64,000 bases of DNA, from contig QPGO01000118.1 of NCBI GenBank assembly GCA_008632985.1, positions 124,001 to 188,000 on the forward strand, written 5' to 3'. Source of the stretch: Psammoneis japonica (lineage: Eukaryota). This document shows positions 38,472 through 64,000 of the stretch, piece after piece (the stretch's first letter is position 1; every line of letters starts with the position of its first letter). Below the pieces are notes generated by a model. That model did not search any database. It was given only the letters and a program-made list of their open reading frames with translations, and was not told the origin of the DNA. The position numbers and the translations under genes are program-made.

Positions 38472-38536
38472 GTAGCGGAGTGGTTCATCGCAACCATTGG
38501 GCAGGAGGCCAGGGGTTTGAAACCCTGAGTGGGAGT
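38472..38536 (+). promoter_or_regulatory. tRNA-like sequence with Pol III A and B boxes inside the TRIM
   Basis: A box TAGCGGAGTGG (38473); D-stem GCGG/TCGC; B box GGTTTGAAACC (38514) inside a CAGGG/CCCTG stem; anticodon region too short for a functional tRNA. Confidence 0.55.
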
Positions 38537-38600
38537 TGTCTGCAGCAACGTTGATCACTGTCGAACGCGTGAAACTCTGTGCAGTTCTGCACGTTCCTTC

Positions 38601-43878: not shown

Positions 43879-44265
43879 TGCAACACACAGCCACTGGTGA
43901 GAGTCAATGCATCACGGCGACGTGTTGCAGCCTTCAAATGTCACAAAGGGCGTGGCAAAAACAACCTTTTGTCTGCGTGCATGCTGCGCTGTGAATTCAC
44001 AGCGGAGTGGTTCATCGCAACCATCAGGCAGGAGTGCGCAAAACTCTGTGCAGTTCTGTGTGTTCCTTTGCACACCCACACTGTTCCGCCAAAACCGCAC
44101 AGTGTCAGTGCACGTCAGCAAAGAGCCGTGTGGACGCGTGACACATGGGGAGGAGTGCAATGCACAGCCACTGACAAGAGTTGATGCATCACAGCAACGT
44201 GTCACAGCCTTTAAATGTCACAAAGGGCGTGACAAAAACAACCTTTTGTCTGCATGCACACTGCA
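43879..44265 (+). mobile_element. TRIM-like element, copy 2 (387 bp, 110-bp terminal direct repeats, TSD AATT)
   Basis: Repeats at 43879-43988 and 44156-44265; PPT GGGGAGGAG at 44147-44155; AATT at 43875-43878 and 44266-44269. Confidence 0.85.
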
Positions 44266-44864
44266 AATTGTCCCCGTTTGCAAACATGTGGTGCTTGTGG
44301 GGAGGAACAAACCAGCAAAATCAGCAATGGTTGTCGACAATTGCTTGATGAATCACCAACCGATGTTGCAAGAAGCAAGAGTGCTCTGCATGACTTGAGG
44401 CAAAAGGGAAATTGGAAGAAGAAGCAGCCAGCAAGAGTGGAGCAAATAGAAAGAAAATTGGTCTGCGCTGGTTTCTTGAATGGTTGAGCCAGCCAGCTCT
44501 CCTCAGCAGTCAAAATTGCTGCTTGCCATTCACCAAAATGCAAATGGCATCAATTTTGATGGCAGTGCAGGGCAGGACACCTTGAATTGACAAGGGTGAG
44601 GATGAGCTGCAGTGGAAGCAGGCAAGGTTGAGAAACATGATGGGGAAGAGAAACTGCTTTCTGCAGCACAGCCGCACAAATGTTGCGCCATTGGAGAGCC
44701 ACTCATCTCACATTTTTGCTGCATGGTTTGTCATTCATCAGGATCTCCCACCTCCCTCCACCTCAACTTTGTCCATGCATGCTCCATGGTTCATGTTTCA
44801 CTGTTGCACGCGTCATTCTTCCCTCAAATTCATGTGTCAGTTGTTGAGAATGTTGATGTTTGCC

Positions 44865-45725
44865 ATGCCTTACATTGCCCCCAATGCTGACTCTTGGGGT
44901 CCACCAGATTTCATTGACAAAGCAAGTCCAAATGCTCCTTCCAGCTTGGCCAAGTTTGCTGACTTGCCCTGTGCTCCCTTTGGCCAATCTGACCACCTGG
45001 GCTGAGCTGCTGACTTTGTTTCTTCCAACCACCCTGGTCACAGTTGACAAGGAAGATGCAGCAAGGGAAAGGTCTTCAAAAAGGAAACAGAAGAAGGAGA
45101 AAAAAGTTTCCACCTGGTGGATGCTTCCAAAACTGCAACCACCAAAAGATTTGTTGTGCCTGCTGCTTGTCGGTGCCAACACACTGCTCTTTTGCATCAA
45201 GTCAGTGCTCATTGCCAGCAAACTGCTGGAAGTGCTGCTCTTTCCAAGGAGACTTTGACTCAGCAAAAGGAGGTCCCGGCAGATGTGGCAGACATGGAGG
45301 CAGTCGTGGAGGCGGTTGCAGTGGCTGTGGTGGCCGAGGAGGGCATCATGGCAACAATGACTGCACTGGTCAAAGTCCATCTGTTGTGGTGCAGCAAGAC
45401 TGGGTCAAGGTGGAGGAGTTGGATCTTGCCAAATTGACAAAGCACTTGTGCACCTCAACAGATTTTCCCATGGCTGAGTGTGTTTTGTGGTGTGGATTCT
45501 TGGATCCACACAATGACCCCAATGTCTTGAGTTGGGAGCATGTGAAATTTTCCAGTTGCTGAAGTGAGCTCTTTGCAGAGAGAACATCTGGGATGCCAAC
45601 AATCTGGGTCTGACCTTCTGCCACAATCTGGGCATTTGTTGACTTCAATGCCAGATCATTGTTGGCTCATGAGCCAAGTCTCTCCTTAAACATGACATGA
45701 GAACCAGACAAGTTCACAAGCTTCT
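44865..45725 (+). pseudogene. eIF3 subunit D 5' fragment pseudogene
   Basis: NADSWGPP...FADLPCAPFGQSDHLG, SVVVQQDWVKVEELDLAKLTK and LWCGFLDPHND match the eIF3d N-terminal blocks with Y to C/H. Confidence 0.75.
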
Positions 45726-47539
45726 AAAACCCAAATCGCTTCCCACTTTTAAGCATGGTCATTCTTTTCACACAATGGTGTCCTGCGCCCCTTCCCAGAA
45801 CGCCTCCGGTGAAGATGTCATGCTCCTTGGCTCCTGCAGAACTGATTTCATGTGATCTCCTCCTGAAGTGAGTTCTTGATCGAAGATTGTGAACTTGCGA
45901 TGCGGCCAAACACTTTCATTGATTGCCTTTGTCAGCATCGATGCTGTCAATTTCTTGCCCACCACTGGTGCATGATCCAACACAAGACATCCCTCTGTGG
46001 GAGTCACCGCTGAACTCGAATCCCCACCTGTGCACTGGAATCTGTTTAATTCCCCATGTTCATTTCTTTGTGCACTCAACAAGGCTGCCACCGCAGGACT
46101 CATGGTGACTTCATGTGACACCACACAGGTGAATCCAATTCTGTCAGTTCATCAGCAACTCTTTGTCATGTCCTTTCTCAACCTTGCTTGCCACTCGAGA
46201 AGCTGCGCTTCCTCCCTTCATTGCTCCTGTGAGAACTGTCTCCTCCATCTTTTTTGCCTTCCCAATGGCTTCCTCTCATTTGGAGCTGCTGTCCTTTCCT
46301 GTTGCTTTATGAACAGGTGAGTTGCAAAATGAGTGCACTTTGCATGTGATGTTCTCTGTTTTGTCATTGCTCGCGTGTCCTCTCTCGATTCAAACAGGTG
46401 TTTGTGTCATTTTTGAGTGCTCATTCCCAACCCCATGTTTGAATTTCTGTCAACCTTCCACTGTTTTGAATTGTGCACCTTTGCTGGCCAATCCAATGCC
46501 TCAATGAAGATTGCAATGTCATTCAAATCAATGTCAAACAACACATTTTACATTCTTGTGTCAATGCATGCATTTCAGTCCTCCAACGGCTGACAAAGCA
46601 TCTTGTTGTCACCAAGATGTGGTTGTTGTGAGTCGTTCCCATTGCAGGAACGCGCGTTCCCTCCATTGCAATGACATGCCGCCAATTGACAATCAAATGG
46701 GTTGTTTTGCTGGTGGTGGCGTGGAACCACACGGTGGTGCGGCAAGCTTTGCCTTCTTTGCCAAGGTCATTTGCAGCCCAGCTCTCCTTGTGGCCCAAAC
46801 TCGCAGCCCTTTTAATTTCCTCAACATTGGTGGTTGTGCCAGTTTTGCGATTGCCTGTTGTTTGCTTGTTCCTTCCTGCAATGCCTGCAGCATCAAGTTC
46901 CACCACCCCCATCATGATTTGGGCTCTCAGTGGTGCAATGCCATCTGGCCTAACCCTGCCGGTTGTTGTCCTGCCCTGATCAATGAGGACTTCCTCTCTG
47001 AAGATGATGCTGTGCATTGGTTGCACCATCAGAACAACTTAAAAGATTTTCTTCAACAACCACAATGGGCGAATGCTTTTTGACAACAACGCAGCACAGA
47101 ACCAACTTGAGGAGATGCTGTCCAATGAGTGTCCTGAAGGCACTGTCATCATTTCACTGGACGTGATGTTTTGTGTGTGTGCCCACAAATGGAGGCACGA
47201 AGCATTCTTTGTTCCTGCCTGTCCAGACGATCTGTCTCATGGGGAGGTGGTGTTGACAGGCACCTGCTTCACAAGCACACCAAGAAAAGAGATGGTGCCA
47301 TGGAGCCAAGGCATTCCACTGGGAACGACCTGGGGACTGACATCAAACAAAAATTCAAGCCTGCCAAAAGTGGGTGACTTGGCACTTTCCCTTTTTTTTT
47401 TTAAAGGCAACTTTCTTCCATGCAAGCAATGCATTGTGTCAATCAGCCATTTGCACAAACTTGCTTTTTGCCTTTGCCAACTTGCTGCTTGGCCAGTTTT
47501 GCATTCCAACAACCACTTGTTCACACGCTTGCTGTGTCA

Positions 47540-48183
47540 AAATTGTGGACTGGACATGCCATGTTCCTTCAACCCAAATTCGTTTTGTTGGGCAAAGCTT
47601 GGTGCAACATTCTTGCATCAAAAACAAATGCAGTGCCTGCTTCTCCAACCAGTGATTGTTTTTCCAAACCCAACCCAACCAAGCATCTTTCGCGTTCCTT
47701 CTCATTCAACATTGCCTCACAACCATCCAGCCAAGCCTCAACTGCACCGTTGTCCTCCGTTGTGTCGTTGAGGAACAGAAACATGGTGAAAATTTTGTCA
47801 CCAGGAAATGACTCTGTTTCCACATGATCATGATGAATTTTGCCCTTTGACCAGAAGTTTGATCTTGAACTTGAAGCAGGAGCGTTTGCGGCTGTGTGCC
47901 GGGATGTCTTTGTGCCCAAATCATCTGCTGGGGGAAAGCCAGGAATTAACTCCAACATTTTTTCTGCCAGCTCAACACCTTCCGCCTTGTCCTTTTTGTC
48001 AATGGCAAACTCACCAACAAAACGGTGTCCTTCCTTCTCTTGCTTGCTGCTTGGTGCCTTGTTTGCCAGGGTTGCAATCTTGTTGAGTGGGTGGTTGTGG
48101 AGTTTTGACTTTTTGTGGGTGACCTTTTTTTCCTTCCTGGTGCACTCTTTCTTTGCACCCGGCTGTCTTGCTCTTGACGACAT
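47540..48183 (-). pseudogene. 2OG-Fe(II) dioxygenase (PhyH-like), decayed
   Basis: IHHD (HxD), TMFLFLNDTTEDNGA, GEAGTAFVFDARMLH.ALPNKT, then a TGA (plausibly CGA) and R. Confidence 0.7.
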
Positions 48184-48712
48184 GAGATTTCACTTCACCC
48201 AGGCATGTCAGTGACTTGCCATGTTTCTGACATGACGTTGTTGGCCAATGGGCAAATTTCTGGCATCCGTCAACAGAGCACTTTCGCGCCATTCTCTGAA
48301 CACGCCGGCTCCACCAAATCAAACAGAGCCTGGTCTTTTTTTTTAAGCAGAACGCACCCAATTCAGCAAAAGTCTGCATCCATTTTACTGTGCAACAAAC
48401 ACGACTTTCTCGCAAAATCTGTGTTGCCAACGGCATCTGTCGGGTGCACGGCAGACGTTTTTTTTGCAAACAGTCCCGTGTGACATGATCTTCGTCCATC
48501 CAGTTTACTGCATGATTTCATCAAATGGGTCATCCTGGCCATCTCAAAGCATGGAAAACAATTTGCTTGCACACTGTCTTGTTGGGGTTGTTGTGTGACA
48601 TTTTCATCATGTCGACACCACCGCTGACACAAAGGAACAGCCGCCATCCACCATTCATTCCACACCAAAAACAAACTCTTTGAGATTGATGCGTGCAACA
48701 AACAATTGCAAA

Positions 48713-48852
48713 TGACACACCTGTCTGTCAACAGATCAATTTGGCATCACTTTTTTGTTGTCACACACATCTGTCATCAGAACAATTTGGCACCACTTTT
48801 TCATTGACACACCCATCTGTCAACAGATCAATTTGGTGTCACTTTTTTGTTG
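48713..48852 (+). repeat. Three tandem copies of a ~46-bp unit
   Basis: tgacacacc(tg/ca)tctgtcaacagatcaatttgg(ca/tg)tcacttttttgt. Confidence 0.85.
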
Positions 48853-49805
48853 GTGCACTGAACAAAAGCCGGCACATTGTCGTGACATGAAGCGCATCTC
48901 CCGCAGCAAACCACAGTCTCCCAAATCTGGTCCAAGTTGCTGATCAACGCATGTTGAGCAGTGAACGGATGATGTTGGGGTGACACTGTCTCTTGTCCTC
49001 TGCAGCTGTGTCATTCCCTGTGTGAAACAACAACCTCAACATGATCCCACCCCATGGAATGCTGCCCAATCCCTTGCCTGTTGTGCCACGTTGCCGAAAT
49101 GGATCTGACGAATCTCTTTTTCATCAGACACATCGCACTTCTTTCCCGATGACATTCCACCCAACTCAACCTGGTGTTGCTTTGCCGCTGCCATGTCACA
49201 AAACAGCGTTGACCAATGTTCCATCTGGCCATTGCCCCCCCCCCCCCCCCCCCCCCCGGTGCATCTGGCCCTGTTCAGCATGGAGAACAGCCTTGACACA
49301 AAATTGAGGCTGTGTTGTTCTCCCACATGTTGGGTGAACAAACGCGGTCACGTGTTTGTTTGTCACTCAAAAAAGGGGTTTGACAGACCATTTCATCCGC
49401 AGCATTGTGCTGATGATGTTTGATGCAAAAATCTTTGCACTCAAGAGCAGTGCAGTGGGAAGAGCAATGTGCACAATCCAAACCACCTTGGTGACTTTGC
49501 AAAATGGCTGGTGCATCCAAGCCACATTAGATTGGCTTTGAAGGGAAAAAAGGCACGCAGAAAAATCATTGATGCGCACTGCTTTCAAACCAAAGAATGC
49601 AAAAGATCCACAGTGGCTGAGGCAAGGGACTGCATCAAGTGCACTGCTTCCATTTCCCATCTGTTCCTTGCCTGACAAAATGCATGTTGATGCCTCCTAG
49701 AATGAAAGCCAAGCTCAAAGTCAAACGATTGCCACTGGCATCAACTCCGGTGAGGAGGCTGCCCATGACTGTGACAATGACACAACTTGGGCGGAGACGG
49801 ATGAC

Positions 49806-50615
49806 ATGGATGACGAACATCAAATTTTGACTGGGGCAGAGAGTGAAGAAGTGTTCCACAATGCTGGCAGATTGTTGGCAATTGGCATGGAAGTCAGTGG
49901 CAATTTAAATGGAAGTGACAAAGATGCGCGCGATGGCATTCAAACTCAATGCCTGCAGGAACTTGGACATGACGTTTGCACAATTGACAAGAGGATGCAC
50001 TGTGCTTCCTCACCAAAGCACACAGAGTGCGATGTTCTAAGTTTGCACAGATCAGCAGAATGGAAGAGATCATCCAAAGAGACAAAGTTTGATCACATTT
50101 GCTTTGACTGCGTGCATTCAAACCCGGTGCATCTCTCGGCTTCAGCTCCAAAGGGACCTTTTTTCCGAGATGCACTCAGGGAGCTGCTGCTGTTGCTGAC
50201 GGAAACTGGGATTTTCTTCTTGCATGTGCACAATCTTGCTTTTTTGGAGTTTTGGGTCAAATGGAAGAAACGGCATGTGTCAGAAGAGTGCACTGTTTGC
50301 TTCTTGTGTGAAGAGCAAGTGTGCGACGAGGTCCCCATCCTTCGAGATGAGGCACAAGCAGACATCTCTGCCTGTGGAAAGTTTTGCACAAGGGAGGAGT
50401 GCATGAAGGATCATGAGTTAAAACAGGAAGAGGTGAAACGTCTTGCACAAACAGGTGAAGCTACATTGGCGCATTTTCCAAATTTTGGAGGTCCAGTCAA
50501 ATGTGTCGGATTGGCCAGACAAAGAAAGGACCCTTGCCATGTTCCAGTTTTTGCCGGTGACAACTGTGAGTGTTGTCCAACATGCAGTCTCAAGAGACAC
50601 AAGCGTTTTCTGTGA
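49806..50615 (+). pseudogene. Class I SAM-dependent methyltransferase-like ORF, decayed
   Basis: LLAIGM, LQELGHDVCTID, ECDV, KFDHICFDC and LRELLLLLTETGIFFL follow Rossmann MTase strand order once H/C are read back as Y. Confidence 0.45.
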
Positions 50616-53600
50616 TGCCCACATTGCAGGCCAGCTCCCATCCAAAAGACTGTGCAGTTTGATCTTGACTGCAAAGATGCACCTGACTCTGCATGTGGAA
50701 TAAAAAACAGCAAGAAAACCAAGGAAGAATCTTTCCTCCAGGAAATCAAACAGCACGACGCCGACATCTTGTCAGTTGTTGGAGGAAGAAGGACCAACCA
50801 CATGGGGTGGGAGGCAAGAACTGGGGTTTGTCATCAACACGTCCCAAAAGCATTGGCAACAATTTGAACAACAAAAGAGAAGTCAAGCAAAAATTCTGCC
50901 TGAAACAACCTCGCCGGAAGTCCAACAAGCCATCTGACACGTTCGACAATGAAATCCTTTTTGTTGAAAAACCAGGCAGGGAGGGAACAAGGTGTTCCCT
51001 CATCATCCAATTCAAGCTGCGTGCAATGGCACACAGTGCAATGGGTCTGAATGCTTTAGAGCAAATGTGTTGGCACCTTCAATGCAAGCAGAGATTCTAC
51101 GTTTGGATGCAAATCACCCCCATGCCGGGCAGGTGATCCAACTCATCCACTCGTTTTGAACCCAGACGCAATGGAGGGAATTGCCAACGATGACGTGTTC
51201 AGGTTGTGCAAGTTTGACAAAAGAATTCTTGGATTGGGTTTGTCAACACAGCTTGGAAACATTGTTGAACAGGGGCTGAGCAGTGGGTCAGCACGAGAGT
51301 TTTTACTTTCTGCAAAGTTTGACCGTTCATTTTGAGGGACTGTTGCCAAAGATTTTGGCATGAATGGAGTGATTGCTCAAGGTTGGAGCCGCAATGGTGG
51401 ATCAGGTGTTGCAAAACCTGGAATGATGGAAAAGGAAAAAGATCTCTCTGCCAGGTGCAGACAGTGGATTTTGCAACTGACCAAGATTTTGGTTCACGTC
51501 ATGTGCCAAAAAGCTTTGCAGGGAACACCAAGGTCTTCCCAAGGAGAAATGTTGGAAGAAAGATGAAGGTTGTCTGAGAAATGCCAAGCCGGGTTGGGTT
51601 GCCCAGAACAATTGCGAGGTGTGTCAAAACTCAATGAGGCGGGATCTCACATGACCAGTTGCCCTCTAAAACACTTCGACTCAGAAAACAAGTGGGAATT
51701 CCTCTTGGATGACATCAGCAATGGTGTTGTGTTCATTGATGATTGGCGGGATTACAACATTGGTGAAGATTTGGTGGATGAGCTGAAAAGGCATTCTGTG
51801 CCCATCACAAACACAATGTTCAACCATGCATCGTACAACAGAGAGATTGTCGGAATCCAGTTGTGAAAGCCACTGTTCAAGATGGATTGTGAACATGCAA
51901 ATGCCCTGTTGGAACAACTGGAATCGCCGGCAGATGGCTTCAACCTTTCCACAATGGAGAACACTGATGATGTTCAGTGCACCACCCAACACATTGGGGA
52001 TCACCTTCAGCAATTTGACAGTGGCGATCATAAGGGCATGACCTTCTCCTGGGATCAATCGCCCACAGCTGGTTCAATTTCACATTTTGCTGTGAGGGAT
52101 GCGTTGCTTTCCACCACAGAGACGAACTCGCGGCATTTGTGGGTGTGGAATTCAGTGGTGCACCTCTTGTTGCTCTGGTTGCATTGAGGGAATCTGTGAA
52201 ACCCGAAAACCAAGAATCTGTGAAGACTTTGTTGCAGAAAAATGAAATGGGATTGTTGCATTGCTAATCAGTGTCGATGATGAAGCAATTGAAGAACAAC
52301 GGTGACATGAGCGGAACAACGTGCTTGATGTTGCAGAGATTTCAATGCATGGATCCTTCGTTGACCAACATTGAGGAGATGTGAATCTGCTGTGCATTCA
52401 TTTCCAGTCAATTTGATGTTCTGCAGGTGCAAAGGATGCTGATGGAAGTCATGAATCTGCCAGGGAACTTTTGTTTTGTCGCGAAGCCAGGAAGAAAAAC
52501 TCACCCAAGCAGTGGTTGCCGAGCGTGAGGTTGGACAATGTGCACGTGGCTTTGACGATCCAGTTGGCTTCCATGATGGGACAAATCCCCCCTTGAAATG
52601 CCGCAGAGGCGCGCATGTCCAAGGGCAATTCTGGACTTGTCTCTTTGTCGACATGTGTGTTGTGGGGAAGGAAGCACACGCGAGAGGTGAACGGATCTCC
52701 TCATTGAAGGCAAGGGAAGTTGTTCAAAATGCAATTGAAGTTGCAAGAAAAAATGGCAGAAGACCAACTTGGGCCAAATGTGACCCACCAGGCTGCAGGG
52801 AATGTCAATCGATGAACAACATGTTGCACAAGGATCCATGCCACCTCGCATCTGGCGAGCGTGGTGTGTTGCCCATTCGCTCTTTGGAACATTCGAACAA
52901 GTCGACAAGCGGTTTGTAGCCTGACAAATCGGAGCACAGGATTGAACATTTCATTGGTGATCAATGGCATGATTTGTCAACTCATGTTGATGTTTGCTTT
53001 TGTGGCAAGTCAAAGCATGACTTGACAAAGCACAAGGGTTTGTTCGAATTCCGAGAATCAAAACTGAGTGGGACCAACCAGTGCTTTTAGACAAATTAGC
53101 AAGTTTTTGCTGATCACTCTAGTCACTGACAGAAGGAGCAACAAGGAGTGGAACCAACAGATGCTTTTAGACAGGTTGACATGCTTTTGCAGCTAACTCA
53201 TCAGAGCGCTGACAGAATGCTTAAAAAACATTTACGAGTGTTTCCTTTTTCCCAAGGTGCGTTGTCGTTTCTCTTTTCCTCACTTCCTGCATTTGTCTGA
53301 GTGAAGCTGGAGCACTTTGTTGGACAGGAAATAATTTGGCCAGTCATTGTGTCTGTCAGCAACAAACAACAATGAGTTCGAGCATCCCACCACTTCAACA
53401 TTGTCTCCATTGCAGTTGTCAGGAACCAGGACAGAAAAAACCCCATTGCAATTGCGTCTCTGCCAGCACACCAAAATTTTGGGATTGTCTGAGAATCTCT
53501 GCCACAACCAACAGTTGTTGTTTCAAGTTCCCAGTGCTCAACCGCACCATTGGAAGACATGTCACGCAACGTCTTCGTCTGTTCCTTGCATGACTGTCCT

Positions 53601-56600
53601 GCGGCAAGTGGCGTTGTTCCGTCATCAGCCAACACAAAACCACGGAGCACAAAAGGGCACCTTTTCTTCTGACCAGTTCCCTCTTTGTACAAGACCCTGG
53701 GTGTGTCATGCCACAACCCATTGTTGTTGCAATTGGGGTGTCCCCGCATTAAAATCCCTTTCTCTGGGCCGGTGTGGCAAACTCCGAGCAAACAACAACT
53801 TCGCTGCACTTGGTGGACAGTTCCTCCGTTGGCGACAACAAAAAATGCAGCAGGGTAGAGTCCAACTCTGCAGTTTCCGGGACGACCAGGATCTTGTTGC
53901 TGCCTGAACACTGGTGGCAAGTTTGGGCAGTTCTGTTCAAAACAAACAAGGGGTGCATCAATTTTTCTTCAGAGGAAGACACGCTCGCCTGACCAACTGT
54001 GGGAGGGATGAGAAGGCCACGTGCCTTCTCAAGAACTGCCATGTCATGCAAACGAACAACAAGTTGGTCCAAGAAATTGTCTGCACCCAATGCAACCTGG
54101 CAAGTTTTTGCCAGAAGCTTGGCCCAGAACTTCAGGTGACTCTCTCCAGTCATGGCAGAGAAATTCGCAATCTGGCCACAAAGGAAAGAGTCGATGATGA
54201 GATGCAGCATAGAGTGGAACTTGGCAGTCCCGAACAAGCAAGTGTTCCTTGCATGACAAAGGCATGATTTTATCTTGAACATGAGCAGGACGATGCAGCA
54301 CTTGAAATCCACCTTTCCTGTTTTTCCATGGAGTCCCTTGCCGTAGAGACAAAACAAATGGAAAAGCAGCATGTGATGCAACAAGTCCAACAATTCATCA
54401 ACTCCACAATCGATGGATTTTTCAGCTGTCGTTTTGTCATCTACGATCTTCATGAAGGTGTCCAGAAGTTTGTTTTCTGTTTCAGCACAAATGACAGTGC
54501 TTGGCAATTTTGTCTTTGCAAGAAGAAAGTGCTGTCTGTCTGCACACCTTGCAAAGTTGTCCCGATCATCCACTGAACCAACGACAAGACCATGTGGTCC
54601 GGGCATCGACAATTGATCAGGTGAAGTCTCAACAGTGCGTTGTTTCCGTCTCAATGATTTGGTTTCACCCCATGCAATCTTCTGGCACAACAAAAAGCGA
54701 TTGTCATCTGGTTGATTGGAAAATGGTTCCCAAAATTCAGAAAGGCCGTGACCATGCATCTGTTGCATCACACAGTTGCGGTGATGGAAATCGGATGGAT
54801 CGTGGGCAACATCAGACCATGTCTCTTTAGGAAATGCAACAGGCGCATTCTCATCAACCGGGGTTGTGTTTGTTTTGCCAGTTTGTTCATTTGATGGTTC
54901 AACAGGATCAGGGTCCTCATTGTTGGGTTCACTTTCTGATGATTTGGCGGGTTGTTCTTCTTGTTGCTTCTTTCCTTTAAAGCCGTCAGCCGTCTTTTTC
55001 TTTTTGCTGTCAAAGGATGGATCGCACCTTTTTTCCAGCAGTTTTCTGCCAGCATGTGTGTGGCCAATGATTGCAAGTGCAAGAAGCTTGCCCATCTTCT
55101 CGTCACATGCAAGTTGACCAAGTGTGGAAAGTCCCCCGTTAACTCAAATTCGTGGATGGTCACGTCTCTGACCTGGACGGCAATGGGATGAGCAGAACAA
55201 TTCAGATGCAATCCAGTTGTGCTCCTCTTTCTGTTTGGCGGACATCTCTCCTGTCATTGCCTCCATCATTTGAGGGACAATGCTCACCTCCAACACACGC
55301 ATCATGTCAGCAACAGTCATGCCAAATGCACCACGTGGGTTGTCGCCCATGTCAAGTGGAAAGCAAGCATTGTCCACTGCATGCTGTCCAAACACTTTCC
55401 TCAACATTTTGGAGCACATGGTCATTCGGCAAATGAGGGAGGAAGCTGGCTCAGTCTCAGCCTTTTTTTTAATGTCATTGCACAGTGCTTCAGTGCTTCC
55501 GGGCAACACTTTTAACACACTGGTGCCAACGGCTGTTGTCATCCTCTGGATCGGGACCCAATGCAGCAACAGTGAGCAACTCAATGAAAGCTTGGTTGAA
55601 GAATTGGCAGACATGGAGGGGATCATCAGACAGGTGGGAGGGCACATGGCAGTTGTGAGACAACCTCTCAGTCTTGCTTCGGCTCATGACTCTTCCACAA
55701 ATGCATTCTTGATCAAGGACATCCCCCAACAGGGAGTTGCAATGTGTCATGGCTCTGACACAGTGGCATTGAGTGCCTGTTGTTGCATGAACAATGGGTG
55801 GATTCGCCTGGCAATGAAGCAGACTGTGGAGAACCTCCTTGAGAATGCAGCGACAGTTGGCAACAACAAGGTGCCCAAGCTTGTCTTTCTTGTCCAAATT
55901 GGGTGTGAATCCAAGTGGATGCCAACAACGACAGTCACGGCATGCATCCTCTTGAATCATGGCAAGTGAGCACATTGCAGGCTCCATCCCATGAGGATTG
56001 ACCACATCAATTCCGGTCTTGTCCGAGCAATTGACAAGGTGAACGTGAAAATCAGAGGCTGTTTCCTTGGCATTGGAGCAACATTGTTGCCACTCGCCAT
56101 CACCCATGTCTTGACTTTGAGTGGACAATCACCAGTCACCAGGATGGTCCGGGAACGACATCTCAACATCCTCAGCCTAGCTGGCGTTGGAGTCCAAATT
56201 GCCATCAGTGGGGGCTGGCACACAAGGTGACCAAATGTCGTTTGGATTGACCTGCAACTTGGAAAGATCACGGAACATTGGCTTGGTGAAGAGATCCTGC
56301 AGGGTCTCGGTGAAACTGCAAACTGGGAAAGCTGGGGAGCGATGACATTTGGTCCATCCTTCTGTTGCTGTGTTGGGTTGTTGCATTCAAGCATCACAGC
56401 AGCAGTGCGGGGGAGAGGAACATTGGGGGGTGGCCCCAGGAGTTGCTTCATTGCCACGGCGGTGTGATGGGGGGCTTTGACACATCCAGTCTTTTTTCTG
56501 CATGCTCTTTGTGCAAAATTCTCATCACTTTGACAATGAAGTCAATTGCAACACCTGACCGACGACACAAATGCAGCAAACATGCCATGGGTGCAATGCT

Positions 56601-57278
56601 GGGTGAGCAAACTGGAGGTGCATCAAAGTCCTCATCGGGTGCAACATCACGTGCCAGTCCCAGAGGATTGTGTTGATCAAAGGAAAAAACAGGCTCTTCC
56701 ATCAGATGGGAGATTGAGGGGGGCCCACAACTGCCATCGAGACGGTTGGCTCCAATGAACTCGGGGACATCCACAGGACTGTCCTCTCCAGTGGCAGACA
56801 CACCATCATCTGCAAACAAAACAAATCAATGGGCGTTTTGGGCAGCTGCGCTGGCGGCATCAATGTTGGCGGCTGAATGCAATCAACCAGAGCATCTGAT
56901 GGAGGGTGGGCGTGGTCCATTTCTGGCAGAGGGAGGGCCAGCTGGAGAAGAATTGTCAGATGGTGTGGGATGAGATGGAGCTGGATTCCAAAGGACTTCG
57001 GGGAGGGGAGGGGGGGGTTCATCGTCGGTGAAACCAAACCCAGCAGGATCATCTTGGTTGTCCAGTGATTCGTCGTCTGGAGGGGGGAGTGCATTTGTGG
57101 CATCAGAAGATGCGGCATGCCGGTGAAGGGACATTTCCTCCTTTTCGCGGCAGGGTGAGTGCTTCTGTAGATGAAGGGCAATGTTGGAAAAGGGGGCACG
57201 GCAATGGGGGCATTTGGGTTTGTTGGTGTTGGACCCAAGGGAGCCAACTGAGGTGGAATCCAGAGCATGAGAGGAAAG

Positions 57279-57710
57279 TGCCCCATGTGTGCACCAGGCG
57301 CTGAAAAAGAAGATGTGTCACGACTTTGTCGTTGTGAAAAATATGAGCTAGTTTAGAGTAGAGAAAATGGGATCGTGCGAATAGGGAATCTTGCCAAATC
57401 CCTATTCGTTCGCATTTGGATCGTATTAAATCGATCGTGCGTTCGCATTATGGATCGTGCGAATCAAGCCATCACGCGCCATGCACGAGTGATATCATCG
57501 TGTGGAATCACGCTACCATCGTGGGCCAGACGACGGGCTAGTGTGCTTCACACGGATGCTCTCTTAGCATCCTTCTGGAATTGCCTAAGACCTAGAGCCA
57601 CGCCCTCCTGTGGTCGTGCTTCCCAGGTACGTGTTAACAATACTACGTTGCCACGTACAAGAGGCTTATGCACGGTCTCGCCGTGTTGTCCAGTAGCGAG
57701 GCATACTGCA
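57279..57710 (-). repeat. Gypsy 3' LTR (mostly TA-retaining)
   Basis: Colinear without indels with 61921-62352. Confidence 0.95.
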
Positions 57711-57879
57711 CACTCCCCCATGATGAGGGCCGTTAAGTGACAGAATGTCTTACTGGTGATAGGGTACAATCTGCCGTAGATTATACGTATCTATCAGCGC
57801 TCCGTTCTGGATACGCAACGTGCCGTTGTCATATACACGGACAACTCTGGCGGGTCCTGCATAGCTGTCAGAACCGTAT

Positions 57880-60842
57880 TTATTTAGAGGATTGTTCCTG
57901 TTTGATAAGTACTAATTGCCCTACGGTATATTGATACTCCTTGCGTTTCTGATTTTCACGCTTGTTGTTTAATTGGATAAGCTTCTGCTTTCTGGTTTTT
58001 ATGTACTTCCACTTAGTACGATAGGCAATAGATAAAACCGCATCGCGTCCGAAGACCAATTGCATGGGACTTGCACGCGTGGTCGTGTGTACCGTAGCTC
58101 TAATAGCGAAGGCTACTGCGGAGAGGATGCCACTCCATGGGTCATCTTCGTCCAGTTCCATATCCTGTACTGAAAAGGAACGTACCATGTTACCAAGTGT
58201 CTGGTGTACACGTTCCACTATGGCATTTGCCTGTGGATTCCGTTTACTTATGGGTTTCTTCAAAATCCCATAGTCATTTTTAATCATCATCTGGCTAAAT
58301 TCTGCCATAAATTCTGTCCCACGGTCATAAACCACCTGGGTTGGCCACGGATATCTGCATAGCCACGTTTGTTCCACGACGTTTGCTACGACGTCTGCGC
58401 GTTTCGTAGACACTTTTTTAATCTCGAACCACCCGGTTGCTGGGTCAATCATTGTGACTGCCCATAATTGCAAGGTGTCCTTTCCGCCCTATCATATCTA
58501 TGCATAGAGTTTCCCATGGAATTATCTCTGCGACCTTTTCTGGTAGCTTCCCATAACGCTGCGTTCGGCGTTTTGTCTTCTGGCATCGATCGCACTTAAC
58601 GCACGTAGAATGCACCGTAGACCTCATACTAGGCCAATAGAAGTGCTAGGCAATAGATATTTCCGTACGTGTCTCACCTGGATGACACAGTGTCTCGTTG
58701 TACCATTCAGTTAGCGGAACCTGCAATGACTGTGGTACTACGATTTTGTCCTTATGACAGATTAACTGTCGTGATGACCCTCCCCCAAGATACGCGCGAA
58801 TGGAGTAGTCGGACGAGTCCTTAGCTCTTGAGAGTAGGCGCTTGTCCTTTTGTTGTGCTTTTTGAATGCGCTTGAAGCTAACAGGCAGAGATGGCTCATC
58901 TTGAGCGTCTGCATTAAAGGCTTCATGCAAAGGACGACTCGATGGAGTGTTTTTACATCCGGATTGGCTTCGGAAGGCAAGCTGGGTGCCAGTCGAAGGC
59001 GACTGAGAGCGTCAGCGACCAGGTTGTGGGTGCCCTTGACACAGCGTAATTCGGGACCGCACTCTTCGCATGTGACCGCCAGCGCATAACGCGCTCGGCA
59101 TTGAATGCTTTGTACGTAAGATTTTTATGATCAGTGTGTGTGACCACATGATGACCAAGGAGAGTCGTTCGAAATTCTTTCAACGTCTCCACAATGGCGA
59201 GTGATTCTCTCTCCGTTGTTGCACAATTTAATTGCGCACTGTCAAGCTTTCTGCTGTAAAAGGCAATGGGTTTGTTATTTTGGGACACAGCTGCTCCCAA
59301 TTGACATTTAGAGGCATCGTCATGTGTCTCAAAGGGTTTGTTAAAATCAGGATGTGATGACAAAACATCATCCGATGTCACCCGTTTGACGGTTTCGAAC
59401 GCCTCGTCTTCAACGGACGTCCACTTTGCGAGTCGTGTTGGCGGAGCCAAGACTTCAGAACATCTAATCCACGTGTCACGGCAGCAGCTCACCATGCCAA
59501 CAAATGAACGCAGGTCGCGTTTGTTGGTTGGGGTCGCGATTCGCTCAATGGCATCGACTTTGTCAGGCATTGGTCGTGTTCCGTCTCTGTTGACCAGATG
59601 ACCCAAGCACTCTAATTGGGTTTGACAGAAGTGAGATTTAGTTGCGTTGGCTTTTAGCCCTGCTTTCTGGACCCTCAATGAGACTTCTTCAAGTTTGTTG
59701 AGGTGATCTTCACAGGTGCCTTTCGTCACGATGAGAAGGTCATCTAAGTGCGTTCGAACGAACAACAGATCTTCAAATGAGCCTGACATGCGTTCTTGGA
59801 AAATGTCTGGCGAACCACACAATCCCATGGGCAATGCCTGCATCTCACACTTGCCCCACAGGAAGATGAGCGTGCAGAGCTTCTTGCTGTCAGCATCCAA
59901 TCGGACATGACAATGGCCCATGTTTAAATCCAGCGATGTAGCCCACACAAAGCCTTCGAGCTTAAGTGGCACATCTTGGACATGAGGAATCGGATGAGGC
60001 AATCGCTTGATCCATTTATTCAGCTCTCTGAAATCATCAATGAAACGCACCGTTAAATCTTTCTTCGGTGTGACAAATGATGGAGCTGCCCATTGGGATC
60101 GGTTGACGCGTTTGAGAACACCGATGTGCGCTGGGCGCTCTACTTCCTTGCGCAGCGTAGCTTCGCATGCACGAGGTGCTTTATGCGGACGAGCGTGGTG
60201 TGGTTCTACACCCTCCTTGAGTTGGATGTGGCAGGGTTCTCCCTTCCATTCTCCCAATGTCCCATCAAACAAGGACTCATGGCGTTTCAACAGTGCCAAA
60301 AGGTTGTTTTGTTGAACTGTAGAAAGTCCCATTGCCCCTCGCGTCATGTCCTCGAGGCAGGCCGGTGCGCACTTAGCGTCCAAAATGCGCGAAATCCGGT
60401 CGGTTTCCGAAGATGAGGCTTCTGGATCTTGAAGATAGAAGGAGGTTTCCACCGCAGCATCTACGTGCCTCATTGGCACTTCTCCATTGACTGATGGCCA
60501 CTCTGTCATCTGTTTAGAGAAGACAATGTCAATGCCTCATGTCTCCAGAATGTCACGTCCAACAATCATGTCGCACTTGCCCAACTTTCCGTTGTGCACG
60601 TGGACGGCATGCTTGGGTTCTGCAGTTTCGGATGATTCTGGTGACCGAAATTTAACGGCACAGTCGTCAGACGCACTGAATGAGCCTGCCACCGTAGTCC
60701 AGTTTGTCTCAGCCGTTGAATGGCTTCGCAGATGTTTGCAGTGTCGACTGTCGAGCAGAGTGCTGCCAGCGCCACTGTCTGGCAGTGCCTCAATGGTTTG
60801 AGTCTTGCCCTTGCCATGTTTGGTGTTCATGGCCACAAACAA
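57880..60842 (-). pseudogene. Gypsy pol: protease (ALPDSGA), RT (HLDD), RNase H, integrase (HPG..R, C..C, YDRGTEF, NPQANAIVER)
   Basis: ORFs 60537-60842, 58953-60509, 58646-58930, 58445-58627 and 57880-58473; frameshifted. Confidence 0.93.
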
Positions 60843-60973
60843 GATTGGAGCAAGATGAGTCTTTTTAACTCGTTTGGGGATTGGCCTGCAACACGTGTAC
60901 GATGGTAATTCAGTTGCTCATTTGTACATTCATCTGATGCATTAAAACCACCTGCATCATGTCGGCCCCCTTC

Positions 60974-61813
60974 TCAGGCGTCCGAATCTTCGGAACCACT
61001 TAAGTTGAGGTCGCGGAAGTGATTGAGCTCCTCCTTGTGGGCCTTGCGCTTTTTCTGAGCGTTGGCAAAGCACTCCTCGACCTTCGATCCGATGAGAGCA
61101 TTGGTGTCTTCCTCATTCCGAGGTTTTGCATCAGGCTTGCCGCCTCCGTCATTGGAATGTCCAGTCTTGACACGTTTCACGTGGTGCTTGAGCTGACGGC
61201 AATCTTCCGCATCATGTCCACAGTCAGTCCCGTGTGGCACACACGACTTCTGGGTGTTCCGCTGGGTCGTGATCAACGACTCAGGATTGTCCATTCTACG
61301 TCCCCGCTTGCGTGGAACCTTGGCATGTTGGTCCTGGTTACCTTCGGCAAGCTCGACCTGCTCGATGCGCTCGCAGAACTGCACAAATTCGGTGATGGCA
61401 TGCGCCAACGGGTCAAAATTCTGTAGCGTCATGAACTTCTGCCATGCGTTCGGCACACCGCACTCGAACATGTCGCACAGTTCGTCATTGGGCAATGGTG
61501 CCGGTGTTTCTCCATCCTCCATCACGGGTGGAAACTGAGAGATGTGGCCGTTAATTTCAACAGCCCTCGCGACACAGTCACGAGCAGAAACCTCTGCGGG
61601 CTTGCGCATGAAGCGCCGCAGATGACGCTTCTGCAGCAGCACCGCCCCATTTGGGAAGACACTTTCCTTTAGCTTCGCGATGCATGCTGCGCACGTAGCG
61701 TTGGTTTGGGATGCCTGCTTGTCAGCGGCATTGTCAAATGACGTCAGAGCATCGCCCTGTGGCAAGTCACGCTTCTTTCTTCTCCGGCCGTGCGAACGGA
61801 ATCGGCGGCTCAA
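60974..61813 (-). pseudogene. Gypsy gag, with a C-terminal CxxHxxxxxHxxxxC knuckle
   Basis: VFP..AVLLQKRHLRR.MRKP, GVPNAWQ, FCERIE and CVPHGTDCGHDAEDC; lies between the 5' LTR and the protease. Confidence 0.85.
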
Positions 61814-61920
61814 CCCGCTTCTTCATGGTCGTTTTGAGATTTGTCGGTCCTGCCAACATTTCGTAGTTTCGTTTCTGTAGATTTCGTCACCTCGCACAAC
61901 ATGCGGGAGCAATGTTGCTG

Positions 61921-62352
61921 TGCCCTGTGTGTGTGCCAGGCGCTGAAAAAGAAGATGTGTTGCGACTTTGTCGTTGTGAAAAACATGAGCTAGTTTAGAG
62001 CAGAGAAAATGGGATCGTGCGAATGGGGAATCTTGCCAAATCCCCATTCGTTTGCACTTGGATCACATTAAATTGATCGTGCGCTTGCATTGTGGATCGT
62101 GCGAATCAAGCCATCACGCGCCATGCACGAGTGATGTCATCGTGTGGAATCACGCTACCATCGTGGGCCAGACGACGGGCTGGTGTGCTTCACACGGATG
62201 CTCTCTTAGCATCCTTCTGGAATTGCCTGAGACCTAGAGCCACGCCCTCCTGTGGTCGTGCTTCCCAGGTGCGTGTCAACAATGCTGCTTTGCCATGCAC
62301 AAGAGGCTTGTGCACGGTCTCGCCGTGTTGTCCAGCAGCGAGGCACACTGCA
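61921..62352 (-). repeat. Gypsy 5' LTR (TA-edited)
   Basis: Colinear with 57279-57710; differs mainly by loss of TA. Confidence 0.95.
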
Positions 62353-64000
62353 AAAGAGATGTTCCGCTGGATGGGGAAGATGATTGGGTTGTGCGGCGCA
62401 ACTGTGTCAATGGGGGAGGGAGACCAGATGCAGCAGTGCAGTGCCGAGACAGGTGATGCTGCACATTGTTTTCGGAGTCAAATCCACGTTGTCCACAATG
62501 AGGACAACTGAAAGACTTGGTGGGAATGGTGGAACGGAGGCAGCCAGTTGCAATGTGCCTGCTGAGACCACGTTTGGAAAAGAAACCAGTTCGTTCACAC
62601 CAAGGACAAACAAGACCATCAGACAACATGGCCAATGCACAGAGACAAAGGAGTTGAGAAGAGAATCAAAAGGAAACAGTGTGTGCAGCAACAATCACTT
62701 GGGGATTTGGTGAGGGTGGAAAGATGTGAAGAGAAACAAGGTGCGATTGATGGGGGAAGGCGTCATGGCTGGACAGGACAGAAGGATGGAATGGGCAGGG
62801 AGAGAAAGTTTAGAAGACTGCCTTGACGAATGCATGCGACAATTTTGATCCAGAAAGTTGATTGACACACAATCCAGAAATCAACATGGAACTGAACAAA
62901 CACATGAGGCTTGTTGGATGGGGGGGGGGGGGGGGGGGGGGGGGTTGAATGGTTGAATTGGGGAGTGCAGATGTTTGTTGTTGAACATTTCACAAATGCT
63001 GACTTGACAAATCAGCATGATCATGGATTGGGGGGAGAGCATGTCGGGTTTAATTTCAAGCAATCTTGACGGCTGGTGCGACACCTGGATTGTTGGTGTC
63101 CCAGATGTGACTTCATCACATGCACTTTCTGTGTGGCATCCCGGATGGTTTCAGAAAAGCTGTGCTTGTGAACCTCATCACATGATGAGGGGGAGAGCTC
63201 CTCCATGCCCCTGTCATGCTTGAGGTGTTTGATCCCTTGACAATGAGTTTGCCATCCTTTGCAACTTCCAAACAAAATTCATGATTGCAGCTGTCAACAT
63301 TCTCAGCATGGGCAATTGCCTCTTTGAAAAGAGTGCAAACAGGGTGAGTTTTGACAGTTGAAACCATGTGCACACAATTGAACAATGGAGTCCAAGAATG
63401 AGAGTGAAGCTTGAGTTGCTGCTCAATCAGCACAACAAACTCAAAAACAAACATGACAACATCCCAACTCACCATCTTGCTGCCTGTGCTGATGATGATG
63501 ATCAAATTGAGTGCATGTAAAACTTTTTTGCAAGAAGTCCCAAGTGTTGAATTCCCCAGCTCTCACTTGGCAGTCTTCAAGCCATTTTTGCACTTTGCAC
63601 CAGCAACTGGTTCCCAAGGAGGCATTGTGGTGAATCTTGTTGTTCTTCCTTCTTCCTCTTCTTCTTTCCAGCTTGTTGCTTGCTTGGACAGCCCACTGGA
63701 AATTGCAAAATTCAGACTTGGGCATGCTGGTGCCCAAACAAGAAACAACAGCAACACACGCATAAATTTTTGCATGACCCCAGTGTGCATGATGCATGCA
63801 TGACATCTGCTGCATGTTCAGCACCAGACTCCACAAGGGAAAAAACAGACAGATGCAAGGGGGGAGAGATCCGTGATGACCAGAAATGTGTGGTGGGAAT
63901 GAAAGTGCAGTGACAGCCAAGTTGCCCACCCTCCTGCATTGAGAAGCCTCTGAGTGGCCATCATGTGCTGTTGCATGCTGCAAAGTTGTGCACACATTCT

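Follow-up and report, generated by a model that had tools for sequence, protein, structure and literature searches.

The two long terminal repeats (LTRs) of a retrotransposon in the window (the whole 64,000-nucleotide stretch analyzed here, from the diatom Psammoneis japonica) differ mostly at TpA dinucleotides. The questions raised by this locus are when these dinucleotides were changed, in which direction, and by what agent. All features are collected in Table 1.

Structure of the element

The element is a Ty3/gypsy LTR retrotransposon, inserted on the minus strand of its diatom host and bounded by an AAAG target-site duplication. The direct 432-bp LTRs have TG...CA ends, are 92.8% identical, and carry AAAG on both sides. 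The domain order on the minus strand is reverse transcriptase (RT), RNase H, integrase; the integrase is thus downstream of RT-RNase H, the Ty3/gypsy arrangement, although the integrase-core hit is weak and lies below the curated cut-off (Table 1). Because the element is on the minus strand, its left-hand LTR is the 3' LTR. The purine run adjoining this LTR resembles a polypurine tract, in keeping with the orientation, and the ORF at the protease position contains a DSGA motif. A total of 1292 homologues of the RT/RNase H product (P0001) were found, and these bear PF00078, PF17917, and PF00665.

Table 1. Features of the element and of the blocks around it (o/e, observed/expected ratio).
Feature	Positions	Strand	Remarks
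TA-free block between ordinary genes	5950..10650		
TA-free block with decayed Rab-like gene fragment	34350..36900		
Copy 2, partial, same element family, RT-RNase H	37004..38480	+	87% identical to 60269-58780
TA-free block, left flank of element	39000..57278		TpA o/e 0.01-0.16, CpG o/e 0.08-0.6
Target-site duplication, left copy	57275..57278		AAAG, direct reading; equals 62353-62356
3' LTR	57279..57710	-	TG...CA ends; little changed: 23 TA, TpA o/e 0.86, CpG o/e 1.18
Short purine run adjoining 3' LTR	57711..57719	-	Minus strand: GGGGGAG, then TG, then LTR; direct reading
Integrase-core ORF, untouched part of element	57880..58488	-	Pfam rve, E = 4.3e-5, 24.1 bits (below the curated cut-off of 32.6)
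RT/RNase H ORF (P0001)	58953..60536	-	RVT_1 E = 2.5e-15, RT_RNaseH E = 2.8e-24
Converted tract within element	58985..62352		ca. 80% of TA to TG/CA; TpA o/e 0.27
ORF, protease position	60537..60917	-	DSGA in translation; no Pfam hit
ORF, gag position	60974..61822	-	Assigned by position only; no Pfam hit
5' LTR, converted copy	61921..62352	-	6 TA, TpA o/e 0.26, CpG o/e 0.85
Target-site duplication, right copy	62353..62356		AAAG, direct reading
TA-free block, right flank of element	62353..64000		TpA o/e 0.04, CpG o/e 0.21

Comparison of the LTRs

The computational alignment of 57279-57710 with 61921-62352 was gapless, and of its 432 positions 31 differed, 30 by a transition and one by a transversion. 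The right LTR has lost 74% of the TA found in the left. The counts given in the original prediction were reproduced exactly: 17 of the 23 left-LTR TA are changed in the right LTR, nine to TG (57383, 57450, 57494, 57540, 57587, 57629, 57642, 57645, and 57668) and eight to CA (57342, 57359, 57403, 57424, 57635, 57656, 57694, and 57704), with none in reverse; not one TA of the right LTR coincides with any difference. The leftover differences were also as it had listed them, namely five CpG of the left LTR that read TG or CA in the right (57411, 57423, 57432, 57444, and 57654), three adjacent CA-versus-TG doublets (57284-5, 57292-3, and 57319-20), two other T>C changes (57415 and 57442), and the transversion (57647). 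Although TA occupies 10.6% of LTR positions, it accounts for 17 of the 31 differences (binomial p = 1.8e-9), and the 17:0 direction has a sign-test p of 1.5e-5. Outside TA and CG contexts, with the three doublets set aside, 2 of 322 positions differ.

The matching AAAG that had been cited against a joining of two different elements was confirmed at both ends. Because this duplication is shared and only 2/322 positions differ outside TA and CG contexts, both LTRs were assigned to one insertion; one of them is nevertheless missing most of its TA, which places the change after insertion and in DNA, as had been proposed. The expectation that LTR dating would return too great an age also held, as the raw divergence is 7.2%, compared to ca. 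0.6% outside the hypermutable contexts.

Polarity of the change

Polarity was determined using 60 outgroup reverse transcriptases, among which 249 columns were conserved in at least 48 of the 60. At these columns, the focal copy alone deviates 38 times and copy 2 alone 7 times. The focal copy retains Tyr at none of the 14 conserved Tyr columns and copy 2 at nine; in those nine columns, the focal copy reads His (3) or Cys (6). P0001 thus bears Tyr-to-His/Cys replacements, along with others derived from TA. The outgroup proteins make TA ancestral, upholding the direction TA to TG/CA that had been claimed; the LTR sites themselves were presumably changed in the same direction, by analogy with the adjoining internal region.

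The TA content of copy 2 is normal, and this copy was used as the reference state; its few conversions are restricted to its right end, which adjoins a TA-free block. Compared to this reference, 77 of the 96 TA in 58986-60300 were converted (39 to TG and 38 to CA), 18 were kept, and 1 had become CG. In the same comparison, 11 of 80 CpG were converted, and 46 of 914 other positions differed.

Strand use and sequence context

Both strands were used, as had been predicted: the ratio of TG to CA is 9:8 in the LTR and 39:38 in the internal region, and the two outcomes are interleaved. The accompanying suggestion of strand-coordinated tracts failed in runs tests (z = -0.24 for the LTR, +2.31 for the internal region, and -0.64 for a metagenome copy), the internal value signifying more alternation than chance. 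Instead of strand runs, the neighboring base sets whether TG or CA results. On either strand, the site that is hit is T-A-Y, which reads R-T-A on the opposite strand. In three data sets, TA was kept at 1 of 52 sites preceded by A, 3 of 42 preceded by G, 21 of 49 preceded by C, and 15 of 50 preceded by T; resolved by strand, the fraction of sites hit was 0.58 with C 3' of the A, 0.49 with T, 0.32 with A, and 0.18 with G. The residual TA in the TA-free blocks is 58% YTAR and 2% RTAY, versus 19% and 30%, respectively, in the gene blocks (chi-square p about 1e-20). A TAY site becomes RTA when its complement is read, so the sequence accommodates the targeting of adenine and that of thymine equally.

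Distribution of TpA across the window

Within this one element, the TpA o/e drops from 0.97 (57711-58984) to 0.27 (58985-61920). The converted tract has a sharp left edge between 58955 and 58990, and its right side merges into the TA-free flank. TpA is distributed bimodally over the 64-kb window: the o/e is ca. 0.5-0.65 in gene blocks together with their intergenic DNA (intergenic 0.65, long ORFs 0.53), versus 0.01-0.08 in repeat and pseudogene blocks. In absolute terms, 100 TA are present in 28,079 bp of TA-free blocks and 1027 in 25,903 bp of gene blocks. Other repeat pairs within the window gave the same result, with TA to TG/CA accounting for 18 of 28 differences in one comparison and 8 of 14 in another, and none in reverse in either.

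The CpG o/e is 0.2-0.4 in the repeat and pseudogene blocks (ca. 28 kb; 0.08-0.6 over the TA-free blocks) and ca. 1 in the gene blocks. A CpG o/e well below 1, as expected of methylation-type CpG decay, is therefore found in the TA-free blocks; this decay is no more than a secondary component, and the TA loss is not explained by it. Because TA loss and CpG decay occur in the same blocks, the GC content of the TA-free blocks stays near 47%, i.e. unchanged.

Read data

Run X1 is a public run that is possibly from the source sample of the window assembly, and it is thus not treated as an independent organism. Contigs built from its k-mers at a depth of 64-68 (the level of the other low-depth single-contig stretch) had 0 differences to the TA-free segments 44237-45613 (1377 bp) and 63081-64000 (920 bp). 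The summed contig depth of the element family in X1 was 12,000-26,000, compared to ca. 68 for single-copy DNA. The left flank, which contains decayed EMP70, eIF3-zeta-like, and PhyH-like gene fragments, was mostly multi-copy in X1, as was the TA-free flank when it was examined in bins, 2 of 30 bins being listed as single-copy yet TA-free. Neither copy 2 nor the left half of the element, which is very high-copy, is mutated. Given the single-copy TA-free bins and the untouched high-copy left half, repeat number alone does not predict conversion.

Proposed explanation

A region-targeted, DNA-level A:T-to-G:C mutator acting at TpA probably hit the right-hand 3.4 kb of the element after its insertion. 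The Ty3/gypsy element would have landed in diatom DNA that was already TA-free, and its right-hand 3.4 kb, one LTR included, would later have been struck by the process that had cleaned the flanks. This process would act on the genomic DNA of particular regions, turning TpA into TpG or CpA with equal strand use and a preference for T-A-Y, at a rate inside the struck region of more than 100 times background substitution. Gene-rich blocks and their intergenic DNA are spared; silent repeat and pseudogene blocks are pushed to ca. 2-5% of the expected TA, with the slower methylation-type CpG decay running alongside. Codons for Tyr, as well as ATA, TTA, CTA, and GTA, would be ruined together with any further signals that contain TA, and TAA and TAG stops would be deleted.

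The present data show that insertion preceded the change, and they show its polarity, strand symmetry, sequence context, regional targeting, and presence in read data. The agent is most likely an enzyme that deaminates adenine in DNA, a chemistry that we infer: the resulting hypoxanthine would be copied as G. Such a deaminase may be recruited to silenced or repeated chromatin, constituting a genome defense of the RIP type with a different chemistry. The broader proposal, that some diatoms possess a RIP-analogous defense in which a natural DNA adenine deaminase acts on the A of 5'-TAY-3' on either strand, is advanced tentatively, and we judge it a little more apt to fail than to hold.

Alternative explanations

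In place of a dedicated mutator, a mutagenic epigenetic mark at TpA in silent chromatin could mispair at replication; we regard this as unlikely, albeit deserving of real weight. The candidate mark would be thymine oxidized to 5hmU or 5fU by a TET/JBP-type dioxygenase, with TA decaying like methylated CpG, only faster. 5-Formyluracil mispairs with G, and in dinoflagellates 5hmU is found preferentially at TpA. Loss of TA and CpG in the same blocks is expected of two chromatin-linked marks; a symmetric mark on the palindrome TA accounts for equal strand use; and RTA describes the motif as well as TAY does. However, the contrast in rates is extreme, with 80% of TA and 14% of CpG converted in one tract, and in a metagenome copy (L016) 54 TA were converted versus 2 CpG. 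In addition, the sharp edge inside a single element is more like the boundary of an event or domain than the product of slow decay.

It is also rather doubtful that the whole insertion was converted and that gene conversion by an unmutated donor then replaced its left 1.7 kb, most of the left LTR included. In that case, the LTR contrast and the edge near 58970 would mark a gene-conversion junction and not the place where mutation stopped. Donors exist, the family being very abundant, and the three CA-versus-TG doublets, all within the outermost 42 bp of the left LTR (57284-57320), look like the remnant of an old, independently converted edge. Nevertheless, the same DNA-level TA to TG/CA process would still be needed, the donor would have to be nearly identical (given the LTR divergence of 2/322 outside TA and CG), and the conversions in copy 2, which lie only beside a TA-free block, fit an inward spread from the flanks. 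Restoration by gene conversion would alter the origin ascribed to the tract boundary, not the DNA-level conclusion.

A sequencing or assembly artefact, e.g. the miscalling of a modified base at TpA, is highly improbable. Long-read basecallers can miscall modified motifs, and the TA-free blocks overlap blocks that are probably methylated; however, the X1 k-mer contigs reproduce the interleaved TG and CA exactly, whereas modification on both strands predicts all-TG and all-CA read versions. Further, TA almost never reads CG (1/96), and a metagenome assembly from elsewhere bears the same signature. Just as little credence is given to a mutation bias against TA throughout the genome, in which selection would keep TA only in genes: TpA is indeed somewhat low everywhere, even in long ORFs, but the intergenic value in gene blocks exceeds that of the ORFs, and the same-age comparisons of the two element halves and of the two LTRs (TpA o/e 0.86 vs 0.26) reject it.

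Editing before integration, either of the RNA intermediate by an ADAR-like A-to-I activity or of the cDNA by an APOBEC-like one, is very hard to credit. The 5' T of the A-to-G changes is like the 5' U/T neighbor preference of ADAR, but the 3' preference of ADAR is opposite to the pattern here, in which G is the rarest base 3' of A. Because reverse transcription uses the same template segments for both LTRs, such edits would be identical in the two, which differ at 17 TA sites; neither this identity nor the strand asymmetry of RNA-level A-to-I editing was found. The equal, interleaved strand outcomes and the logic of LTR copying therefore exclude editing of the RNA intermediate, and, outside retroelements, host-gene pseudogenes and flanks are TA-free to the same degree. 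Fungal-type RIP of the opposite polarity (CpA/TpG to TpA in the left LTR) can practically be dismissed: the two LTRs alone suit either direction, and some diatoms are described as encoding DNMT4 enzymes related to fungal RID (PMC9998398), but the outgroup proteins make Tyr (TAY) ancestral, the TA-rich LTR is the normal one and the other is depleted, and TA-free blocks with unchanged GC are the reverse of AT-rich RIP products.

Comparison with known mutation systems

The proposed mutator resembles RIP (Neurospora and other fungi) in that non-genic or repeated DNA would be hypermutated at the DNA level after entering the genome, on both strands, in a dinucleotide context, and at a large share of target sites, with coding ruined and neighboring genes spared. 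Unlike RIP, which is C-to-T (CpA to TpA) and yields AT- and TA-rich products, the change here runs the opposite way, from TpA to CpA/TpG, and leaves TA-free DNA with a GC fraction near 0.47, in a diatom and not a fungus. RIP is set off by sequence duplication, mutates both copies, acts premeiotically, and needs a RID-type DNMT; a cytosine methyltransferase-like enzyme such as RID is incapable of the change seen here. The decay of 5-methylcytosine at CpG in methylated transposons occurs in the same blocks and has the same end dinucleotides, TG and CA, and is here a slower second component (11/80 CpG in the young tract). However, it cannot remove TA, the loss of which is several times more complete and, in L016, was not accompanied by loss of CpG. 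ADAR hyper-editing fossils and APOBEC3 likewise leave clustered transitions in retroelements, and ADAR also makes A-to-G changes with a 5' U/T; those systems act on RNA or cDNA, strand-asymmetrically and identically in both LTRs, whereas the present changes are post-integration, symmetric, and found in non-retroelement DNA too.

In TadA/ADAT2-type deaminases and the TadA-derived adenine base editors, A is converted to inosine and read as G; this is a mechanistic likeness and not a claim of membership. In the natural substrate of TadA/ADAT2, the target A is preceded by U and followed by C, in agreement with the T-A-Y preference measured here. To our knowledge, natural members act on tRNA, with DNA activity known only from laboratory evolution. 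A literature search returned no description of a targeted DNA mutation that erases TpA.

Implications

If the process is genome-wide, the very few systems of programmed DNA hypermutation would be joined by one that has a second chemistry (A:T to G:C at TpA) and lies outside fungi. An enzyme acting on adenine or thymine in DNA would be implied, which is of direct interest for base editing. In such genomes, LTR-divergence dating and Kimura-distance repeat landscapes would be unreliable, old transposons and pseudogenes would be concealed from homology searches, and gene finders would meet long spurious ORFs in all frames owing to the loss of TAA and TAG. The TA-free compartment, being GC-neutral, would be overlooked by GC-based isochore or RIP-index scans. 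An adenine-deaminase defense, if true, would be a means by which TpA, Tyr codons, TAA/TAG stops, and further signals with TA are erased with no shift in GC. Among eukaryotes, it would be the first natural DNA mutator programmed for A:T-to-G:C changes, and natural editors of DNA adenine might be obtained from it.

Related sequences

When L016 was compared to two near-identical relatives, 54 of 99 differences were TA to TG/CA and 3 were in reverse; CpG was almost unchanged, with only 2 converted to TG or CA. Two public proteins, P0065 and P0093, have Cys or His at 12/16 and 11/16 conserved Tyr columns, respectively. Overall TA depletion was found in 1 of 78 metagenome loci, so the process is uncommon among relatives of the element. 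In one contig (L083), TA- and CpG-poor flanks surround a TA-normal gypsy copy, and several metagenome copies are CpG-poor with normal TA.

The focal retrotransposon and its LTR pair

ORFs of the element were taken from stop to stop on the minus strand, and domains were assigned using Pfam (see the table). The order of these ORFs and a short purine run adjoining the left LTR on the minus strand identify the focal element as a Ty3/gypsy retrotransposon lying on the minus strand; the right LTR is thus its 5' LTR. Neither the gag-position nor the protease-position ORF matched a Pfam family. The reading frame shifts within 58488-58953, from the ORF for RT/RNase H to that for the integrase core, and hence the element's pol is not a single open frame; the integrase zinc-finger region is encoded there by overlapping ORFs of other frames.

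The original prediction held that TA dinucleotides of the left LTR had been changed to TG or CA ("conversion") in the right one, and its description of the pair was borne out in every detail by a gapless alignment and a scripted count. The LTRs differ at 31 of 432 positions, and 30 of these differences are transitions. Seventeen of the 23 TA in the left LTR are changed in the right LTR (nine to TG and eight to CA), which retains six, and no difference falls inside any TA of the right LTR. The remainder comprises five sites that are CpG in the left LTR and TG or CA in the right, three adjacent CA-versus-TG doublets, two other T>C differences and one transversion; the AAAG target duplication is present on both sides of the element. 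TA positions account for 10.6% of the LTR yet for 17 of the 31 differences (binomial p = 1.8e-9), and the 17:0 direction has p = 1.5e-5. Outside of TA and CG contexts, and with the three doublets excluded, the LTRs differ at 2 of 322 positions. In the right-LTR lineage, the loss was ca. 1.3 per TA (6 of 23 remaining) and ca. 0.2 per CpG (26 of 32 remaining), and the change at other positions lay well below 0.01 per base. Ordinary methyl-CpG decay, which is present here as a companion process only, gives a far less steep ordering.

Because both LTRs are made from the same template segments during reverse transcription, editing prior to integration would appear in both. The TA loss is 74% in one LTR and zero in the other, despite the common target duplication; ADAR- or APOBEC-type editing was rejected on this ground. 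The TG and CA outcomes are equal in number and interleaved. The change thus took place at the DNA level, after insertion and on both strands.

Coordinates of features in the window (empty cells, no entry)
Feature	Position	Strand	Basis or match
Left LTR	57279-57710		LTR pair
Right LTR	61921-62352		LTR pair
ORF at gag position	61822-60974	minus	position
ORF at protease position	60917-60537	minus	DSGA motif
RT/RNase H	60536-58953	minus	RVT_1, E = 2.5e-15; RT_RNaseH, E = 2.8e-24
Integrase core	58488-57880	minus	weak rve match below curated cut-off
TA-free block	1-900
TA-free block	5950-10650
TA-free block	34350-36900
TA-free block	39000-57278
TA-free block	62353-64000
Host-gene fragment stretch in TA-free block	35987-36460
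Host-gene fragment stretch in TA-free block	40151-40945
Host-gene fragment stretch in TA-free block	41023-41424
Host-gene fragment stretch in TA-free block	45014-45559
Host-gene fragment stretch in TA-free block	47572-48189

Polarity of the change

A second, partial copy of the family (37004-38480; "copy 2") has a normal TA content and is 87% identical to 60269-58780 of the focal element. Across the aligned region 58986-60300, the 96 TA of copy 2 correspond in the focal element to 39 TG and 38 CA (77 conversions), 18 retained TA and one CG; CpG was converted at 11 of 80 sites, and the 914 remaining positions include 46 differences. Left of ca. 58970, there are few differences, and they run in the opposite direction, at the place where copy 2 adjoins a TA-poor segment. 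At this end of copy 2 (38380-38550, equivalent to 58712-58879), seven sites that are TA in the focal element are TG or CA, a second instance in which conversion reached a young insert from the flanking DNA.

The outgroup consisted of 60 proteins with 51-57% identity, and a column was defined as conserved if at least 48 of the 60 agreed (249 columns). The focal copy alone deviates at 38 of these columns, and copy 2 alone at seven. Fourteen conserved columns are tyrosine; the focal copy retains none of them and copy 2 retains nine, at which the focal copy has Cys (six) or His (three). The further focal-only replacements (Ile>Val, Leu>Ser, Leu>Pro, Ile>Thr and Val>Ala) are as predicted for TA to TG/CA. 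This comparison with RT-region proteins indicates that TA is the ancestral state and that the change is A:T to G:C.

Other repeats were compared. Between 21634-21970 and 38619-38957, 18 of 28 differences are TA versus TG/CA, with none reversed; between 36901-36998 and 39044-39141, the figures are 8 of 14 and none. The latter pair is a direct repeat (86% identical; eight TA in the left unit, none in the right) that flanks a TA-normal island (37000-39043), which contains the gypsy fragment (copy 2) and the repeat also present at 21634-21970.

Sequence context

Pooling of the LTRs, the element's internal region and one copy from a metagenome yielded 147 converted TA and 40 that were retained. Retention depended on the preceding base (A, 1/52; G, 3/42; C, 21/49; T, 15/50). 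Each TA offers two possible targets; hit fractions calculated on that basis vary with the base that follows the A on its 3' side (C, 0.58; T, 0.49; A, 0.32; G, 0.18). Together, these values define a preferred site of 5'-T-A-Y-3', equivalent to R-T-A on the opposite strand. Among TA surviving in the old TA-free blocks, 58% are YTAR and 2% are RTAY, compared to 19% and 30% in gene blocks (chi-square p ~1e-20), in independent agreement with the T-A-Y preference. The strand-coordinated tracts hinted at in the original prediction were not found: runs tests applied to the sequence of TG and CA outcomes gave z = -0.24, +2.31 and -0.64. The outcome, TG or CA, is set by the neighboring base and not by a tract.

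Two compositional states

For the whole window, the observed/expected ratio (o/e) of TpA is 0.34 and that of CpA/TpG is 1.43, with 1477 TA versus 4378 expected. This average masks two states, i.e. the window is bimodal. The gene blocks have TpA o/e of ca. 0.4-0.9 and CpG of ca. 1. In the TA-free blocks (ca. 28 kb), TpA is 0.01-0.16, CpG 0.08-0.6 and CpA/TpG 1.5-2.1, with GC unchanged at ca. 0.47; they hold 100 TA per 28,079 bp, compared to 1027 per 25,903 bp of gene blocks. The focal element sits in a TA-free block (TpA o/e 0.04 in each flank) and is itself divided, at 0.97 for 57711-58984 and 0.27 for 58985-61920. Each LTR resembles its half of the element (left, 0.86; right, 0.26).

A general bias against TA that is filtered by selection was ruled out as an account of the TA-free blocks, since TpA o/e in the gene blocks is higher in intergenic DNA (0.65) than in long ORFs (0.53); it also fails on the two element halves and on the two LTRs, which are of equal age and differ in TpA.

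Of the stop codons, only TGA is left in the TA-free blocks, TAA and TAG having been erased. As a consequence, long ORFs occur in each of the six frames (89 with 110 aa or more), and gene finders would over-predict in such DNA. A Pfam search of these 89 ORFs returned no transposon families and weak host-gene fragments only. The decayed fragments (Rab18-like, EMP70/TM9SF, eIF3-zeta-like and PhyH/2OG oxygenase) carry the same damage as the element; a search of PDB sequences with the EMP70 fragment found no relative.

Read data

Run X1, a public sequencing run guessed to be of DNA and stored in the form of k-mer contigs, contains 0.89 of the words sampled from 5000-14999, a stretch that is half TA-free. 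X1 contigs with depths of 64-68 were aligned on 44001-64000 and showed no differences across TA-free 44237-45613 and 63081-64000, although X1 is possibly the sample behind the assembly and is not an independent organism. The signature could be an artefact if a modified base at TA were misread, with reads differing by strand. Strand-dependent misreading predicts separate all-TG and all-CA versions, whereas a single interleaved sequence was seen; independent miscalls predict frequent CG, but CG was found at 1 of 96 sites.

The summed depth in X1 is 900-4500 over most of 45335-57340 and 12,000-26,000 over the element; most of the TA-free flank is thus multi-copy. In two of 30 bins, the DNA is single-copy in X1, yet TA-free. 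The TA-free DNA, with its gene fragments and mostly multi-copy status, may be a large amplified unit that carries pseudogenes. Copies within X1 differ by transitions at 1242 places and by transversions at 269; many adjacent TG/CA double differences, near contig ends, are among the 40 of 1514 differences listed, none of which lies in the LTRs.

The signature in other sequences

Two homologous public metagenome proteins have Cys or His in columns of conserved Tyr, P0065 at 12 of 16 and P0093 at 11 of 16; the next highest count among the 120 homologues listed is three. Of 78 loci obtained in a metagenome scan, one (L016) is TA-depleted overall (TpA o/e 0.29), and in three, TpA o/e drops below 0.25 in one or more windows of 600 bp. 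The contig encoding P0065 was not among the scan's loci, which held relatives at no more than 90% identity instead. L016 (1-1112) has 99 differences from two near-identical relatives, L006 and L001 (two sites differ between this pair); 54 are TA to TG/CA, and three are the reverse. TA falls from 75 to 19 in L016, with CpG changed to TG/CA at two sites only. P0065, P0093 and L016 are members of other gypsy families. Six gypsy loci of other metagenomes (L019, L026, L069, L017, L061 and L094) have CpG o/e of 0.05-0.29 and normal TpA; CpG decay and TA decay are therefore separable.

Among 17 loci of prokaryote-labelled assemblies, L083 and L092 have a whole-contig TpA o/e below 0.4. L092, with a GC content of 69% and a TpA o/e of 0.78 across the match, was set aside. 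In L083, a TA-normal gypsy copy lies between flanks (1-7000 and 11000-14567) with TpA of 0.06-0.35 and CpG of 0.14-0.5. This locus was filed in a bacterial metagenome bin but looks eukaryotic. Its mosaic resembles that of the window.

Mechanism and alternatives

Insertion preceded the change, which acted on ancestral TA, on both strands and in the T-A-Y context; conversion was targeted to silent blocks, had a sharp edge and proceeded at a rate far above that of CpG decay. A candidate enzyme would deaminate adenine in DNA to hypoxanthine, which would be copied as G, and would be recruited to silenced or repeated chromatin. The natural target of TadA/ADAT enzymes has T before the adenine and C after it. 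An adenine deaminase is favored on two grounds: the observed context fits this neighborhood, and so extensive a conversion looks enzymatic. Regarding chemistry, the main rival is oxidation of thymine within R-T-A, yielding a base that mispairs; the sequence fits either chemistry. Regarding the sharp edge, the main rival is replacement of the left 1.7 kb by gene conversion from an unmutated copy. The three CA/TG doublets, clustered within the outermost 42 bp of that LTR on the left side, fit such a gene conversion and short-range spreading from the left flank alike.

The process works functionally like fungal RIP. It differs from RIP in the defining chemical feature, the change here being A:T to G:C and thus its mirror image, and in lineage, as the host is a diatom. 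Some diatoms have RID-related DNMT4 genes, the function of which is given as unknown (PMC9998398). A full-text literature search, covering journals available without subscription, found no description of TA-to-TG/CA hypermutation in diatoms or other eukaryotes.

Gene content of the window

A long ORF on the minus strand (16988-18997), for which the Pfam search gave no family, encodes a repetitive protein very rich in Pro, Ser and Thr and has internal DNA repeats (17628-18266). Host genes in the window include those for galactokinase, purple acid phosphatase, ferritin (31091-31792) and metacaspases. Two metacaspase-like genes (Peptidase_C14; 19433-20847 and 28384-29241) are separated by 8 kb. 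The best named relatives of the galactokinase are from diatoms (57-63% identity).
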